14,582 nucleotides of DNA from a virus. Lineage: Duplodnaviria > Heunggongvirae > Uroviricota > Caudoviricetes. Both the position numbers and the translations under genes were made by a program. Positions within the stretch are counted from its first letter, which is position 1. Each line of letters begins with the position of its first letter. The stretch is from IMG/VR virus record IMGVR_UViG_2574180220_000005; one strand, 5' to 3'. Shown here one piece after another: positions 1,636 to 7,941 of the stretch. The notes under the pieces were generated by a model. That model did no database searches. It worked only from the letters and a program-made list of their open reading frames with translations, and was not told the origin of the DNA.

Positions 1636-1836
1636 TTACATCCACATAATTTGCTGCCCTGACGGCAACGGGTGCGGCCTTACGGCGTGGACTTCTCCCG
1701 GCTTCACGATGTATCGCTGTACCGACTCATAAGTGATGAACGTGGCGCTGCAATTCACGTTCTGACACTGGTGATAACGCTCTTTTGTCGTGTCAGTGAT
1801 ATAGCGACTTGTACGCGCATGTGCGGCATGCTGGCA
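1636..1836 (-). pseudogene. ogr: P2 late-gene activator Ogr, 5'-truncated: start codon and first zinc-finger cysteine lost at a deletion junction
   Basis: Translation ...CQHAAHARTSRYITDTTKERYHQCQNVNCSATFITYESVQRYIVKPGEVHAVRPHPLPSGQQIMWM matches P2 Ogr from its residue 7 onward (from memory). The upstream residues (VTVSASGV) differ and lack the first Cys of the C-X2-C...C-X4-C finger. The only upstream in-frame start is a GTG at 1858-1860. Confidence 0.8.
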
Positions 1837-2662
1837 TACCCCAGAAGCGGAAACCGTCACGGCGAATCAGTGTTGTGACGCCTGACTCGTTAAGCAGGTC
1901 AGCATCGGTGCCGGACTCCTGCAAATCCCAGAATACAGATGCGCTGATGCCGGTAACACCGTTCACCCCGACGTTGGACAGCGTTTTATGCCAGCCCTGC
2001 TCATGGTCTATTTTGGCACGCAGACCCAGCGCACGTGCGGTGGCATACGCGGTGGCGGTGGTACTGGTGACCGTATCCCATGCGAGGAAATCCGGCCAGA
2101 TGACCATCAGCTCACGCTGGCTGAAATTCTGGCGGTAGGCTTTCACCTCAGAAATGGTTTTACAGCCCCATGCGCTGATATACCCGAAAGCGCGCAGCTT
2201 CTGACAGACTGATGCCAGTGCAACAGCCACCTCTTTGGTATCCAGCCCCGGCACACCAAGAATACGCGGTTTAACACCGGTTACCGACTCCGCCGCCAGC
2301 AGGGCTTTCAGTCCGGTGTACTGACCGTTTTCGTCGGTGGTTCCGATGATATTGGAAACAGTCTGCGCGAGTTTCGTTTCTTCGTCTTCGCCGGTGCCGT
2401 CTTCCACGCGCACGACAACGGTGACCGGTTTTGACTGGTCGGCGATGGCCTGCAACGATGCCGCCAGCGTGCCTTTTTTACCGGCCTTTGCAATTGCGCT
2501 CTGCACATTGGTAATCAGCACCGGTTTATTGAGGGGGAAGATTTCCGCATCCGCATCGCTGGCCGTGCAGACCATGCCGACAATGGCAGTGGATACGGTG
2601 GAAATGACGCGGGTGCCGTCGTTAATCTCCAGCACCTGCACGCCGTGATGATAGTCACTCAT
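1837..2662 (-). pseudogene. FI: P2 tail sheath gene FI, N-terminal ~275 codons only, fused out of frame to the ogr remnant (the fusion ORF runs 1793..2662)
   Basis: ORF starts at ATG 2660-2662 with a GGAG Shine-Dalgarno; translation MSDYHHGVQVLEINDGTRVISTVSTAIVGMVCTASDADAE... matches P2 gpFI (from memory) up to ...RRDGFRFWG, then reads ogr DNA in another frame (MPACRTCAYKSLYH*). P2 FI is ~396 aa, so ~120 C-terminal codons are missing. Confidence 0.85.
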
Positions 2663-2756: not shown

Positions 2757-2785
2757 ATAAAGAAAAGGCGGGCAATTCGCCCGCC
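2757..2785 (-). terminator. Rho-independent terminator for the minus-strand cargo gene (hairpin GGCGGGC-aattc-GCCCGCC followed by TTTTCTTT on the minus strand)
   Basis: Perfect 7-bp inverted repeat 2767-2773 / 2779-2785 with a T-rich tract on the minus strand (2757-2766), lying ~150 bp 3' of the stop at 2938. Confidence 0.6.
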
Positions 2786-2937
2786 TGTCCTGACTTGCAC
2801 TCACTCATTTTCCAACTGACAATTTACATAGCCCAAACGCTATCAAATCTGACAGCCTGCTGTGAGCGAGGAGCAGACACATGAACCACACACATCATCC
2901 AACCACAGTCACGATAAGTATTATGCACTCTGTATAA

Positions 2938-4551
2938 CTATATTTTACCCGAAAACTCACCAAAATATGGTCTGAGAGCATTTCTCATTGACTCTCCACT
3001 TTCATTATTAGCCATCCTGACCACTAATTCAGCAAGCTGTCCATTAGCCAGCCCCAGATGCTTACTTACTTGGGATGAAAGGCTTTTCCTGTTATAAAGT
3101 TTTAATGCAAGAAGATAATCACGTTTCTCAACTGCATTATTAAACAGAGATAAACTTTCATCATAAAGCTCTTTAACATTAATTTGTGACGTCAACAACT
3201 CAAGAGCTCTACTAAGAGCATCGACCCCTTTTGCTTTTTCATCAAAACAATTAAGCATGAATTTAATTTCGCCAGCCACACGCAGTGAAATCTGAGTATC
3301 CAGCTCTGAGGATATTTTACGGAACACAAAATCTTTAACTGATTGTAGATCTTTATCTGGATTCCTGACTAATCGTTCGCTAACTAAAGTTATAACTTCC
3401 GGAACGCAAAAGAGATTTTCGACTTCAGCCACGCTTAGAGTATAAATACCGTATTCCAGAAGCGATTGAATTTCATTTTCAACACGTCTATCCCTATCAA
3501 TAATACCAAAAACTTCCATATAATGGAGTTTTTCACTGGCTCTTAGAGCTTTAACATTTTGTATTACTTGACTACAAGAACCAGATGGTATCACTAGATA
3601 ACTATTTAACACAGCACGATAAAGGGATACATCATAGCTTCCATTTTCCCCCTCAACAAAAACAATTGGTTTTCTACTACCCAATATTTCAATTAATAAA
3701 CTTTCTGGTAGGCCTTCGACATCGGGAACATCTTCCCAATCCCAACTGGAACCATCATAACTTTTTAACCAGATTTTCTTTGCATCATGCAGTGCTGCAG
3801 CAAAATCAGTATCATGAGTCATATATACAAACAGGCAATCAGGTCGGAGTTTTTCTATATCCTTCCATAATGGAACTTGTACAGATTTGTGAAGATGAAT
3901 TTCAGGCTCGTCTATGACAATAATTCCATTTTCGGGTGCTGCAAGACATTGCCCAATCAGATAGAAAATAACTCGCTCACCGTCGCTCATTTCCGAGGGG
4001 TTATAGACAGCCTCGTTATTTCCTTTTGCTCGTGTTTGAATTGTTAAACCGCCTAAAACAAGCTCTCGGTGAGGTAATGTTTTTTCCCAAATATATTTAA
4101 TTTTATCTAATTTAGTCGTCGTTGGTTCAATTCTTTTTTCTGAAGATTTAACTAATTCAATATATTTCGAGTCTTCTTCAATTTTGTCTGAAAAGAGATA
4201 CACCATTAATTTACCATAATCATTTAATGATGATATGGCAGGGTTACTTCCCCAGCGATAATTCTCTTTATACCAAAGTGGTTCCGACCCTTCCAAATTT
4301 TCAATTCCATAGAGTAAATTATTCTGTGCTTGTTGAAGCGAAGTTGGTGTTGTATGGTCAGGCATCGCTAAAGCCCGCTGAGCGGAAATACGATGAACAA
4401 TATTTCTTTGAGGAGATTTTAGATCCATCCATGTCCCAAGGCGAGACTTTCCAGAGCCATTCGCACCGATAATAAGCACGCTCTGATTAGTCTCTATTTC
4501 CGCTAGGTCTTTTTCTTTTGTAGGTAGTGTAATTGAAAATGAATTGCTCAT
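2938..4551 (-). CDS. Cargo gene 1: 537-aa ABC-type ATPase fused to a TOPRIM/DUF4435-like domain and a helical C-terminal tail (OLD-family or PARIS-like single-polypeptide candidate defence nuclease)
   Basis: Intact ORF with a strong RBS (AAGGAGGG before ATG 4549-4551). Walker A GANGSGKS (aa 29-36, nt 4444-4467), ABC signature-like SDGER (aa 189-193), Walker B IIVIDEPE (aa 210-217), H-loop YMTHD (aa ~246). TOPRIM-like Glu in PIVFVEGE (E300, nt 3652-3654) and DxD in GIIDRDRR (D352/D354, nt 3490-3498). Lower G+C than flanking P2 genes by eye. Sits between FI and G, the P2 Z/fun hotspot position. Confidence 0.6.
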   Translation of the reverse strand: MSNSFSITLPTKEKDLAEIETNQSVLIIGANGSGKSRLGTWMDLKSPQRNIVHRISAQRALAMPDHTTPTSLQQAQNNLLYGIENLEGSEPLWYKENYRWGSNPAISSLNDYGKLMVYLFSDKIEEDSKYIELVKSSEKRIEPTTTKLDKIKYIWEKTLPHRELVLGGLTIQTRAKGNNEAVYNPSEMSDGERVIFYLIGQCLAAPENGIIVIDEPEIHLHKSVQVPLWKDIEKLRPDCLFVYMTHDTDFAAALHDAKKIWLKSYDGSSWDWEDVPDVEGLPESLLIEILGSRKPIVFVEGENGSYDVSLYRAVLNSYLVIPSGSCSQVIQNVKALRASEKLHYMEVFGIIDRDRRVENEIQSLLEYGIYTLSVAEVENLFCVPEVITLVSERLVRNPDKDLQSVKDFVFRKISSELDTQISLRVAGEIKFMLNCFDEKAKGVDALSRALELLTSQINVKELYDESLSLFNNAVEKRDYLLALKLYNRKSLSSQVSKHLGLANGQLAELVVRMANNESGESMRNALRPYFGEFSGKI

Positions 4552-4813
4552 TTTTTGCCCTCCTTGTTCGCATGGAGTTTAATTAAAACTCAACATCTTA
4601 TTAGATACAACTATTCTTCTTATCAGCTCACAATTCCCTGAAGGTAACTTTTGGTTGCATCTTTAGCAAGATGTTAATATAAGGTAGTTTCATGATAATC
4701 ATATCCAATAGTGATAGAACATTAAAGTATCCGCTCCTGGCACAGAGCGTACTGTCAGATTAGGCTTAACTCTGTGCCATAGATACGTTTGCTCACTCCA
4801 GAGATCATACAAC

Positions 4814-5341
4814 TTATTGCGGCATTTCCGGCCATTCAGGATTTGCAGGATCCACACGACTGACCAGAACGCTGTAACGCTCCCATGCATCCAGTCGGCT
4901 ACGCTCCTCATCTGTTGCCATGTTCAGTCTGACAGCGCGATCCAGCGGCAAAATCACGGATTCAGCATCTGCAAGAAGTCTGGCTTTCCGGTTTTCTGCC
5001 TGCTGCTGCAATTCCTCTGCCGTATAAATGCGTTTAATCACTTTGCCGTCCTTAAACATCCAGTTCCCTGAAATGTCCGCCCGTCGGTTAGCAGTAATAT
5101 CCGCCACTTCAACAACACTTAATCCATCCGGTCTGATAGCTGTCACATCCTTTTCCACATAGCGGATGATATTATCTTTGTCGTACGCTATTTTTAGCGT
5201 GTCATCAGCAAAATACTTTTGTTCTTCGTACCAGTTCTTACCATCTTCTGAAAAAAACCAGACAACATCAAAGTCTTTTGTCAATTGATATTGTTCAACC
5301 GTTTTTGGATTACCTGCCGTTATATTTATCAAATGCTGCAT
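4814..5341 (-). CDS. G: P2-type tail fiber assembly protein gpG, 175 aa, intact
   Basis: Translation [40 protein letters not shown]...[14 protein letters not shown] is the same length as, and closely resembles, P2 gpG (from memory). Confidence 0.8.
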
Positions 5342-5344
5342 AAA

Positions 5345-5590
5345 TTATACCTGCGCCACGTTATACCAAGTCCCGTTAATGTATTTCTGCACCGGTCTGT
5401 AATATACGCCACCAATGTTATCGGCAGAGTTTGAGCCGGTATCCTGAACAATAATGCCGGAATATACACACCCGGACGGTGCCTGATGTGTCCATGTCAT
5501 ACCATTGTTCGCAGGTTTGTATGTGGCAGCACCACCAAGCCGGATATCCCGGACATAGCGTGAATCAAAGTTGCCATAGTTAGATGGTGA
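5345..5590 (-). pseudogene. H: Tail fiber gene H, C-terminal ~80 codons only
   Basis: Minus-strand frame ending at TAA (plus-strand 5345-5347) encodes ...NYGNFDSRYVRDIRLGGAATYKPANNGMTWTHQAPSGCVYSGIIVQDTGSNSADNIGGVYYRPVQKYINGTWYNVAQV, a P2-like tail fiber C-terminus. There is no start codon, and it abuts the J fragment in a different frame. Confidence 0.55.
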
Positions 5591-5730: not shown

Positions 5731-6078
5731 TCAACTCACAGGGATGGTTAACGAAAGTGGCTGGCCGGTGTCGTTGTGCTGGCCGGTCAAAGTGACAGTC
5801 ATTCGCCCGTCAAAACTGCGCTCAGTGGTGACGGATGACAGGGTGATGCGGGGTTCCCATTTCAGCACCGCCATGTAACAGGCGACCTTAATCTGCAACT
5901 CAAGCGCCGGGGTCTGCGGCTGGTCAATCATTGACGCCAGCAACGAGCCGTAATCACGACGCATCACCCGTGAGCCGATCGGTGTGCGCAGGATATCGCC
6001 GATACTCTGGCTGATATGCTCAAGGTCAGTGACAGTCAGGCCATCACTGCGATTCATTCCGAGATAACGCGCTGTCAT
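5731..6078 (-). CDS. W: P2 baseplate wedge protein gpW (gp25-like), 115 aa, intact
   Basis: Translation MTARYLGMNRSDGLTVTDLEHISQSIGDILRTPIGSRVMRRDYGSLLASMIDQPQTPALELQIKVACYMAVLKWEPR... matches P2 gpW (from memory). Its start overlaps the stop of the upstream V fragment (ATGA). Confidence 0.85.
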   Translation of the reverse strand: MTARYLGMNRSDGLTVTDLEHISQSIGDILRTPIGSRVMRRDYGSLLASMIDQPQTPALELQIKVACYMAVLKWEPRITLSSVTTERSFDGRMTVTLTGQHNDTGQPLSLTIPVS

Positions 6079-6300
6079 TTTGTCCCCTGTGTCCAGTTGT
6101 CACCTGACTTAACACCACCGTGACCGTGGTCATCCACCTGAACGCCGTTAGAAGTGAATTTCCCGTCGGTATCCGCCGTGGCTGTCTGGAATATGACGTC
6201 AGCGCCACCGACATCACCAGCTCGTTTATGGCTATCCGCAAGACCATGACCAGCAGTGGACGCAGCGCCACCTATGAGGCCAGCCGCAGCGAGGAAGCCA
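6075..6300 (-). pseudogene. V: Baseplate spike gene V, C-terminal fragment (upstream boundary uncertain)
   Basis: The minus-strand frame ends ...GKFTSNGVQVDDHGHGGVKSGDNWTQGTK with a stop overlapping the W start; the His/Gly-rich C-terminus resembles the P2 gpV apex. The expected ~210-aa ORF is absent. Confidence 0.5.
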
Positions 6301-6404
6301 GCCACGCCGACCTCGCCTGGGCGACCATGCACGCCCTGTTAAATGAGCCACTCACCGCCGGTATCAGCACCCCGCTGACATCCACCATTCTGGAGTTTTA
6401 CTGA
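6300..6404 (+). pseudogene. P: Probable 3' remnant of the large terminase gene P (5' boundary uncertain)
   Basis: The plus-strand frame ends ...LAWATMHALLNEPLTAGISTPLTSTILEFY with a stop overlapping the Q start (TGATG), the arrangement expected for the P-Q operon. I cannot confirm the protein match from memory. Confidence 0.35.
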
Positions 6405-7438
6405 TGAGCAAGAAAAAAGGGAAAACACCGCAACCTGCGGCAAAAAAAATGACCGCCAGCGCCCTGAAAATGGAGGCATTCACCTTTGGTGAGCCGGTGC
6501 CGGTACTCGACCGCCGTGACATTCTAGATTACGTCGAGTGCATCAGTAACGGCAGATGGTATGAGCCGCCGGTCAGCTTTACCGGTCTGGCAAAAAGCCT
6601 GCGTGCTGCCGTACATCACAGCTCACCGATTTACGTCAAACGTAATATTCTGGCCTCGACATTTATCCCGCATCCGTGGCTTTCCCAGCAGGATTTCAGC
6701 CGCTTTGTGCTGGATTTTCTGGTGTTCGGTAATGCGTTTCTGGAAAAGCGTTACAGCACTACCGGTAAGGTCATCAGACTGGAAACCTCACCGGCAAAAT
6801 ATACCCGCCGTGGCGTGGAGGAGGATGTTTACTGGTGGGTGCCGTCCTTCAACGAGCCGACAGCCTTCGCGCCCGGTTCCGTGTTTCACCTGCTGGAGCC
6901 CGATATTAATCAGGAGCTGTACGGCCTGCCGGAATATCTCAGCGCCCTTAACTCTGCCTGGCTGAATGAATCGGCCACGCTGTTCCGCCGCAAGTATTAC
7001 GAAAACGGCGCACATGCCGGATACATCATGTACGTCACCGATGCCGTGCAGGATCGCAACGATATCGAAATGCTTCGCGAAAACATGGTGAAGTCGAAAG
7101 GCCGCAACAACTTTAAAAATCTGTTTCTCTATGCCCCGCAGGGGAAAGCCGACGGCATTAAAATTATCCCGCTCAGTGAAGTGGCAACGAAGGACGATTT
7201 TTTTAATATCAAAAAAGTCAGCGCCGCTGACCTGCTGGACGCACACCGCATCCCCTTTCAGTTGATGGGCGGCAAGCCGGAGAACGTCGGGTCACTGGGA
7301 GATATTGAGAAAGTGGCAAAGGTCTTTGTCCGCAATGAGCTTATCCCGTTACAGGACAGGATCCGCGAGATAAACGGCTGGCTCGGTCAGGAGGTCATCC
7401 GCTTTAAAAACTACTCACTGGACACTGACAACGGCTGA
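6404..7438 (+). CDS. Q: P2 portal protein gpQ, 344 aa, intact
   Basis: Translation MSKKKGKTPQPAAKKMTASALKMEAFTFGEPVPVLDRRDILDYVECISNGRWYEPP... matches P2 gpQ in sequence and length (from memory). Confidence 0.9.
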   Translation: MSKKKGKTPQPAAKKMTASALKMEAFTFGEPVPVLDRRDILDYVECISNGRWYEPPVSFTGLAKSLRAAVHHSSPIYVKRNILASTFIPHPWLSQQDFSRFVLDFLVFGNAFLEKRYSTTGKVIRLETSPAKYTRRGVEEDVYWWVPSFNEPTAFAPGSVFHLLEPDINQELYGLPEYLSALNSAWLNESATLFRRKYYENGAHAGYIMYVTDAVQDRNDIEMLRENMVKSKGRNNFKNLFLYAPQGKADGIKIIPLSEVATKDDFFNIKKVSAADLLDAHRIPFQLMGGKPENVGSLGDIEKVAKVFVRNELIPLQDRIREINGWLGQEVIRFKNYSLDTDNG

Positions 7439-7443
7439 ACATC

Positions 7444-7465
7444 GCCGCCTGCGGGCGGCTTTTTT
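7444..7465 (+). terminator. Rho-independent terminator after Q (GCCGCC-tgcg-GGCGGC followed by TTTTTT)
   Basis: 6-bp GC stem at 7444-7449 / 7454-7459 followed by a T6 tract at 7460-7465, immediately 3' of the Q stop. Confidence 0.75.
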
Positions 7466-7607
7466 ACAACCCGCCATCACGCCCTCACACGCTCACCACC
7501 GCACAAAACAGCCCGCATACACACCAACGCCCCGGCGCACAATCTAAACGCCATCACGACGCGCTCAGACGCTGAAAAAATAAAATCAGCACCCCCGCCA
7601 GCGCGCA

Positions 7608-7626
7608 GTGCTTTCCCCGCCTCGCC
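7608..7626. other. P2 cos cohesive-end sequence (19 nt), within the cos region between Q and cargo gene 2
   Basis: GTGCTTTCCCCGCCTCGCC is the exact reverse complement of the P2 19-nt cohesive end GGCGAGGCGGGGAAAGCAC as I recall it; located where cos is expected, next to Q. Confidence 0.7.
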
Positions 7627-7941
7627 CGCCCGCTTCATGGGGCGGTTTTAATGCAGTTGCATGATGAAACTGAAATCACATCAGCACTGACCGAAACTGA
7701 CAAAAAGAATAGTATCTGACACATGCAAAAACACGCACTTAATATACGCCTATCTATAGCTCCTACAGGATTGTCAAAAAACGACCAACTCGTCATAGCG
7801 TAAACACATTTGGCTCAACGAACACTTACGTTATATGCCTCTTGAACATATCAAAGTCTTAAGGTAGATCTTTACCACTAAGTGGCTATATTAAGCTGCT
7901 TTTTTACATACAATAAAAGCTTTATCGTATGAGGCATAAAA

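Follow-up and report, generated by a model that had tools for sequence, protein, structure and literature searches.

The locus and its cargo gene

The stretch of DNA analysed here (the window; 14,582 nucleotides, IMG/VR record IMGVR_UViG_2574180220_000005) is the yegQ(trhP)-cyaR...yegR attachment region of Escherichia coli with a P2-like prophage. Between the tail-sheath gene FI and the tail-fibre assembly gene G of this prophage lies a gene, at 2938-4551 on the minus strand, whose 537-residue product is 100% identical to RefSeq WP_032170940.1, a protein labelled 'DUF4435 domain-containing protein'. As judged from its sequence, this product is a member of the merged PARIS class, a kind that is already known, and the gene probably encodes a single-chain PARIS (merged AriAB) and would be a stand-alone defence cargo that the prophage carries in its fun hotspot. 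The domain make-up, the intact and conserved catalytic residues, the AriB-like fold of the effector half, the hotspot location and the stand-alone, mobile character of the gene were all computed in this work. The positions of the features are collected in Table 1.

Table 1. Positions of the cargo gene, its signals and predicted domains, and of other features of the window.
Feature	Position	Strand	Basis and remarks
ariAB-like coding sequence	2938..4551	minus	Open reading frame with ATG start, 537 residues plus stop; probable single-chain PARIS
Shine-Dalgarno sequence AGGAGG	4559..4564	minus	Sequence; 7 nt 5' of the ATG
Intrinsic terminator	2766..2786	minus	Stem of 9 bp with 7 G-C pairs and a T-run, from the terminator scan; about 150 nt past the ariAB stop
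ABC ATPase (putative sensor) domain, residues ~1-282	3706..4551	minus	Pfam, motifs, conservation, AlphaFold2 secondary structure
DUF4435 TOPRIM nuclease core (predicted), residues ~283-395	3367..3705	minus	Pfam DUF4435, PADLOC AriB, acidic residues
Helical C-terminal domain (predicted), residues ~396-537	2941..3366	minus	Basic, isoelectric point 8.7, with K489 nearly invariant; AriB-like helical domain
Variable cargo cassette	2880..4733	.	1,854 bp, GC content 0.368, between conserved P2 flanks
Tail-sheath (FI) fragment	1793..2662	minus	Pfam Phage_sheath_1 and Gp18_domIII_N; cut by the deletion join at ~1838
Tail-fibre assembly gene (G)	4814..5341	minus	Pfam Caudo_TAP, E=1.6e-34; annotation in the intact prophage
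CyaR (RyeE) small RNA	1445-1530	plus	Rfam, 100.7 bits; between yegQ/trhP and the prophage end
Deletion of ~5.6 kb			Start of ogrK, D, U, T, E, FII and part of FI lost
Deletion of ~3.4 kb			Most of H, I and part of J lost
Deletion of ~8.5 kb			V through most of P lost
Deletion of ~2.2 kb			Early region including C/cox and the first 38 nt of int lost
Second cargo gene, 738 residues	7942-10158	plus	GC content 0.30; classic tin/old hotspot, with gene Q (portal) on one side and gpA on the other

An earlier description of the gene (the sequence-only reading) had given the boundaries of this open reading frame exactly, and all the motifs and residue numbers that it listed were found correct when their positions were checked. 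In the ATPase part these are GANGSGKS at residues 29-36 (with K35), SDGER at 189-193, IIVIDEPE at 210-217 and YMTHD at 243-247, and in the TOPRIM part PIVFVEGE at 295-302 (with E300) and GIIDRDRR at 349-356 (with D352 and D354). The strong ribosome-binding site claimed there is present as AGGAGG, and the gene is AT-richer than its neighbours, as had also been noticed (GC content 0.372; FI fragment, 0.569; G, 0.449). No sigma-70-like promoter passing the criteria of the promoter scan was found in the 262-nt spacer upstream of ariAB. A terminator had been ascribed to the gene as well. The hairpin is indeed there, but it sits within the flank 2400-2879, which is 95% identical in a prophage with different cargo, and because this flank is conserved across different cargo the terminator belongs to the backbone of the hotspot and did not arrive with the gene. 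The two neighbours had been named rightly, their tail-sheath and tail-fibre assembly character being evident from Pfam, but the truncation of FI and four deletions in the prophage had been missed.

The fun hotspot and its flanks

The boundaries of the cargo were obtained by blastn comparison with the prophage of strain JNU, in which identity is 95-96.6% over the flanks (2400-2879 and 4734-5400) and the sequence enclosed by them is unrelated. Between the same flanks strain JNU carries an 847-bp cassette with a gene for a 'lysogenic conversion protein'. The flanks are present in 881 of 5,426 complete E. coli genomes and this cargo in six of them, at 99.7-100% identity; the six include intact prophages. 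The intact prophage of E. coli 09-00049 occupies the same attachment region between yegQ and yegR and carries an identical ariAB gene flanked by full-length tail-sheath and tail-fibre assembly genes. What is found between G and FI is thus a variable, compositionally foreign cassette between conserved flanks, as is characteristic of the fun locus. The insertion site is the same as that of P2 fun(Z), likewise a moron-type cargo; the cassette itself is unrelated and the flanks are conserved. In P2 the V-W-J-I-H-G late operon ends on one side of the fun site and the FI operon starts on the other, and because of this position between two operons a cargo there would be expected not to interrupt late transcription. 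The assignment of the site to a defence-cargo hotspot, made already in the sequence-only reading, is in line with the work of Vassallo et al. (PMC9519451), who described the fun locus as the second defence-enriched site in P2-like phages; three other anti-phage systems were found there (PMC9519451). The particular occurrence described here, in the fun hotspot of a decayed prophage beside yegQ/cyaR, was not found in the literature searched.

An inverted repeat is also present at 4739-4778 on the minus strand, within the conserved flank and about 36 nt past the stop of G. It consists of a perfect 9-bp repeat (GGCACAGAG ... CTCTGTGCC) with a 22-nt loop and no T-run, and may mark the end of the preceding late operon.

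Domain assignment by profile searches

In Pfam searches the N-terminal part of the protein matched AAA_21 with 42.5 bits (E=1.1e-10, curated cut-off 27), the match to AAA_15 (27.8 bits) staying under the cut-off of that family (32.1). DUF4435 (PF14491) matched at residues 293-426 with 75 bits versus a cut-off of 27 (E=9.9e-21). The ATPase domain has an intact Walker A (K35), Q-loop (Q58), signature (S189-R193), Walker B (D214-E215) and H-loop (H246), with a helical insertion at residues ~72-158 in which four short helices were predicted by AlphaFold2. It is followed in the same chain by the DUF4435 TOPRIM core with the acidic residues E300, D307, D352, D354 and E376/E378. The PADLOC model for AriAB, PDLC02982, aligned end to end (E=1.7e-186, protein residues 3-534 versus model positions 25-568 of 570), the longer AriAB model PDLC02981 of 694 positions matched weakly (E=1.8e-17), and the AriB-only (E=8.1e-18) and AriA-only (E=1.6e-14) models matched the corresponding halves. 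With profile E-values from 1e-20 to 1e-186 the family match is beyond chance. No NCBIfam family was matched at its cut-off by the 537-residue protein.

These results bear out the sequence-only reading in its description of a single polypeptide with an ABC ATPase and a PARIS-like TOPRIM/DUF4435 part, both Pfam matches being past their cut-offs and the AriAB model aligning end to end. Two of its reservations were not sustained. It had considered the protein too small for a fused AriA-AriB, yet the short fused class of ~540-570 residues has a PADLOC model of its own, with 570 positions. It had also left room for a minimal OLD-like or otherwise unclassified protein, against which stand the E-value of the AriAB model, the lack of a TOPRIM_OLD match and the existence of a dedicated profile for such fusions from Rousset. 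The protein has the same domain order and the same size as the merged PARIS proteins of the AAA_21+DUF4435 class (PADLOC PDLC02982), and no difference at the family level was detectable. The DefenseFinder name of this class is PARIS_II_merge, a label that occurs in genome surveys. Standard defence-system tools would already label the gene PARIS, which makes the assignment an ordinary annotation result. Fused ariAB falls within the definition of PARIS. It has been described by bioinformatics, in Rousset 2022, for which the AAA_21+DUF4435 fusion profile was built, and in Burman 2024, where two 'merged' clades were recognised that arose once, from the two-gene clade 9.

Attempts to reach the solved structures through sequence were less successful. 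Searches of the PDB with the single sequence and with a 28-sequence profile did not recover AriB and gave marginal matches only, to AriA (E=0.03-0.3), PtuA, GajA and ABC transporters. AriB was again undetected, at E<=10, when a profile of 26 diverse C-terminal halves was used, the only matches being spurious helical ones. The sequence similarity of the merged protein is thus marginal to solved AriA and, to AriB, undetectable by hidden Markov models. Because the PDB profile search missed AriB, the link to the solved AriB rests on Pfam, PADLOC and the structure comparison.

Predicted structure and comparison with OLD-family nucleases

The full-length protein was modelled confidently by AlphaFold2, with a predicted local distance difference test (pLDDT) score of 89 and a predicted template modelling score of 0.78; residues ~384-537 were predicted to be all-helical. 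For comparison of the effector, the C-terminal half (residues 276-537) was re-modelled by itself, with a pLDDT of 91.6. The best Foldseek match of this half was AriB (8ux9_A), with a probability of 0.99. In the structure comparison of the C-terminal half the matches next after the top one were class 2 OLD (6.6), GajA (5.9) and Thermus OLD (5.6). The alignment covered 184 residues versus roughly 110 for the TOPRIM core, and since it extends beyond the core, the helical tail at least partly corresponds to the helical domain of AriB. The 170-residue tail that the sequence-only reading had left unexplained is helical in the prediction too, as it had stated, and has at least in part a counterpart. 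According to the predicted model, the effector half has an AriB-like fold.

A different picture might be drawn from the full-length model, whose best Foldseek matches were GajA (8u7i) and Thermus scotoductus OLD (6p74), with E about 1e-6. Together with the layout of the protein, an N-terminal ABC ATPase and a C-terminal TOPRIM in one chain, which the OLD family (P2 Old in class 1; Ts and Bp OLD in class 2) and GajA share along with a role in phage defence, these matches could suggest a class 1 OLD-family nuclease like P2 Old, which would act on DNA or sense the status of RecBCD and would not cut tRNA. P2 is moreover the classic carrier of old. We regard this explanation as highly unlikely. The full-length matches had template modelling (TM) scores of 0.2-0.3 and are probably due for the most part to the ABC fold that the proteins share; ABC-type ATPases (GajA, OLD, PtuA, UvrA, SMC) were on top of the list, and for this reason the full-length comparison is uninformative on the effector. 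The ranking obtained with the C-terminal half disfavours OLD. The TOPRIM of the merged protein is of the DUF4435/AriB type and not of the TOPRIM_OLD type that follows the ATPase in class 1 OLD proteins, as the 537-residue protein gave no match to TOPRIM_OLD (PF20469) at E<=0.1, versus 75 bits for DUF4435. In PADLOC, the GajA, PtuA and ATPase-Toprim models matched the ATPase segment only, with E=1e-7 to 1e-9 (for GajA residues 121-230, E=2.7e-9), versus 1e-186 for AriAB. A partner like GajB, the UvrD-type helicase of Gabija, is not present beside the gene, where the neighbours are the tail-sheath and tail-fibre assembly genes. Finally, old sits in the tin/old hotspot, and the merged AriAB gene in the fun hotspot.

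Conservation and spread of the family

A word-indexed search returned 2,754 relatives. PF14491 and PF13304 were annotated in all 120 of the relatives listed, most of which are full length (~530-558 residues) and three of which are fragments of 383-427 residues. Their hosts include Enterobacterales, Vibrionales-like marine gammaproteobacteria, Psychrobacter, cyanobacteria (Nostoc and Anabaena), Bacteroidota and Brocadiales. In an exhaustive search over clusters at 50% identity, 2,850 were found at E<=1e-3; the number at E<=1e-30 was 1,207, and the median length 541 residues. Conservation was assessed in 133 diverse full-length relatives with 35-53% identity to the query. Residues E192, D214, E215, E300, D352, D354 and E378 were invariant in this set; K35, S189-G191, H246, D307 and K489 were nearly so, and Q58 was retained in 121 of the 133.

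No conserved neighbour gene or separate partner was found across four contexts, namely the P2 prophage, another E. coli genomic island, Nostoc and Marinobacter. Merged AriAB is a stand-alone, horizontally mobile single-gene system. A 542-residue copy with 88% identity lies in other E. coli strains in an entirely different genomic island (loci L003-L006; coordinates 6001-7629, or 5123-6751 in L005), where its neighbours include RadC, Antirestrict, DUF932, DUF905, IrmA, YfjS_YafY and a GTPase, with a variable DUF3800 or MUG113. As this copy occurs in a different island, the AriAB gene apparently moves as a single unit between element types.

When 50,697 phage records were searched by tblastn, no merged AriAB was found among sequenced P2-like phages, and the sole match was a distant fused homologue with 28% identity in the Oenococcus phage phi9805. 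The homologue of this temperate phage, at 36758-38284, is full length and has been labelled an 'ABC transporter' ATP-binding protein; it is probably a misannotated merged PARIS.

Comparison with the two-gene PARIS of strain B185

The characterised PARIS of E. coli B185 consists of two proteins, AriA of 464 residues and AriB of about 305 residues (PDB 8ux9, 8v45-8v49), in place of the one polypeptide found here. Its triggers are Ocr and Ptr1/Ptr2, and the anticodon stem is where it cuts tRNA-Lys(UUU), -Thr and -Asn (PMC11464382, PMC12409363). The acidic residues E26, D30, D88, E90 and E122 of AriB (PMC11464382) are paralleled by the acidic set of the merged protein. Other features differ. The better Pfam match of the merged protein is AAA_21 and not AAA_15, unlike that of B185 AriA, and residues D401 and E404 of AriA, which contact AriB, would correspond to S223 and V226 here, as inferred from the ungapped alignment offset. 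In B185, ariA and ariB are separate and AriB is released from the AriA hexamer when the trigger is bound. Free release of this kind is impossible in the merged protein, because its nuclease is covalently tethered.

Several observations weigh against reading the protein as a single-chain PARIS that acts in the way proposed below. The Pfam match to DUF4435 spans only model positions 1-135 of 238, and the Foldseek match to AriB has a low TM-score of 0.33-0.37 (E=3.7e-3). The distance from Walker A to the signature is 154 residues in the merged protein versus about 328 in AriA, as determined from the alignment of query 188-256 with AriA 366-434 and of K35 with AriA K39. This difference indicates that ~174 residues of the AriA insertion are missing, so that the IS1/IS2 coiled coil and the trigger pores, both central and radial (R116, R119, R168, R172), are largely absent. 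Trigger, substrate and oligomeric state may all differ from those of B185. Neither the searchable literature nor the supplements of the two hotspot papers yielded an experimental test of any merged AriAB, or of WP_032170940.

This last point would also suit a PARIS-derived protein with a role other than defence, such as stabilisation of the element by a self-contained, toxin/antitoxin-like addiction module, or a function in lysogenic conversion. The fusion of an ATPase to a nuclease resembles a fused toxin-antitoxin, the gene persists in a decaying prophage, and it is found in different mobile elements. We nevertheless consider such a role unlikely. Curated defence models recognise the family, the fun locus is documented as a hotspot of defence genes, and in B185 PARIS the deletion of either single gene was non-toxic, arguing against a classical toxin-antitoxin (PMC9122126).

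Proposed mechanism

For a single-chain PARIS the most likely function, by homology with the two-gene system, would be the phage-triggered, ATP-dependent activation of a TOPRIM ribonuclease, leading to tRNA cleavage and abortive infection; the anti-phage function, the protein trigger, the tRNA substrate and the abortive outcome are all taken over from B185 (PMC11464382, PMC12409363). The N-terminal ABC ATPase would serve as the sensor, and the C-terminal DUF4435 part would be a two-metal TOPRIM ribonuclease held inactive within the same polypeptide or oligomer. A protein from an infecting, competing phage would be recognised in an ATP-dependent manner, and a conformational change would then allow two nuclease domains to pair and cut host tRNA, upon which translation would stop and the infection would abort. 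Since the effector is not releasable as a free subunit, activation would have to be a rearrangement within the molecule or the oligomer, for example an ATP-driven dimerisation of the heads that brings two tethered TOPRIM domains together.

As it lacks ~174 residues of the AriA insertion and is unable to eject its nuclease, the short merged AriAB could be a mechanistically different machine from the B185 complex, with another sensing surface and possibly other triggers, in which ATP-driven head-to-head dimerisation might pair two tethered TOPRIM domains and the RNA targets might not be tRNA-Lys, -Thr or -Asn. We put this forward tentatively, as a proposal with slightly less than an even chance of being right. 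If it is true, the protein would be a minimal one-protein sensor-effector. The published PARIS mechanism needs the release of free AriB from the AriA hexamer, and with the merged form one could readily examine which of its steps are indispensable. The merged class is very widespread, with at least 1,207 clusters at 50% identity in several phyla, and no functional or structural study of it was found in the searched literature; the present gene is a clean natural example of it.

The decaying prophage and a second cargo gene

In comparison with the intact prophage of strain 09-00049, the prophage in the window has four internal deletions (Table 1), with joins at ~1838, 5592, 6170 and 13026 and an overlap of 2-10 bp at the joins. 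Together they remove most of the tail, baseplate, head and lysis genes. To judge from the genes that are left, the prophage can no longer make virions; it is without a repressor, and its int gene is without a start codon. Two of the four deletions are also present in the complete genome NZ_CM129038 of strain 700481, in which the genes hit by them carry a pseudogene annotation. A mis-assembly of the window was ruled out on this ground.

Given the four deletions around it, the ariAB gene could itself be a decaying, non-functional remnant in a dead prophage. This seems extremely improbable, as the open reading frame is full length relative to its ~540-residue relatives, all catalytic residues are intact, a ribosome-binding site and a terminator are present, and the gene is 99.7-100% identical in six complete genomes, intact prophages included. 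Besides the gene for the probable single-chain PARIS, the second cargo gene, gpA and the portal gene are still intact in the decayed prophage. The locus illustrates how two putative defence cargos, AriAB and the AAA_13/PDC-S06 gene, are kept by a host even as the surrounding P2-like prophage decays.

The protein encoded by the second cargo gene matched the PADLOC candidate system PDC-S06 with E=1.2e-254 and Pfam AAA_13 with E=1e-111; a PrrC-like match at residues 490-730 was weaker (E=9.7e-13). From these matches it may be another ATPase-linked system of the anticodon-nuclease type. Single genes with AAA_13 are among the P2 hotspot cargos in Table S5 of Rousset.

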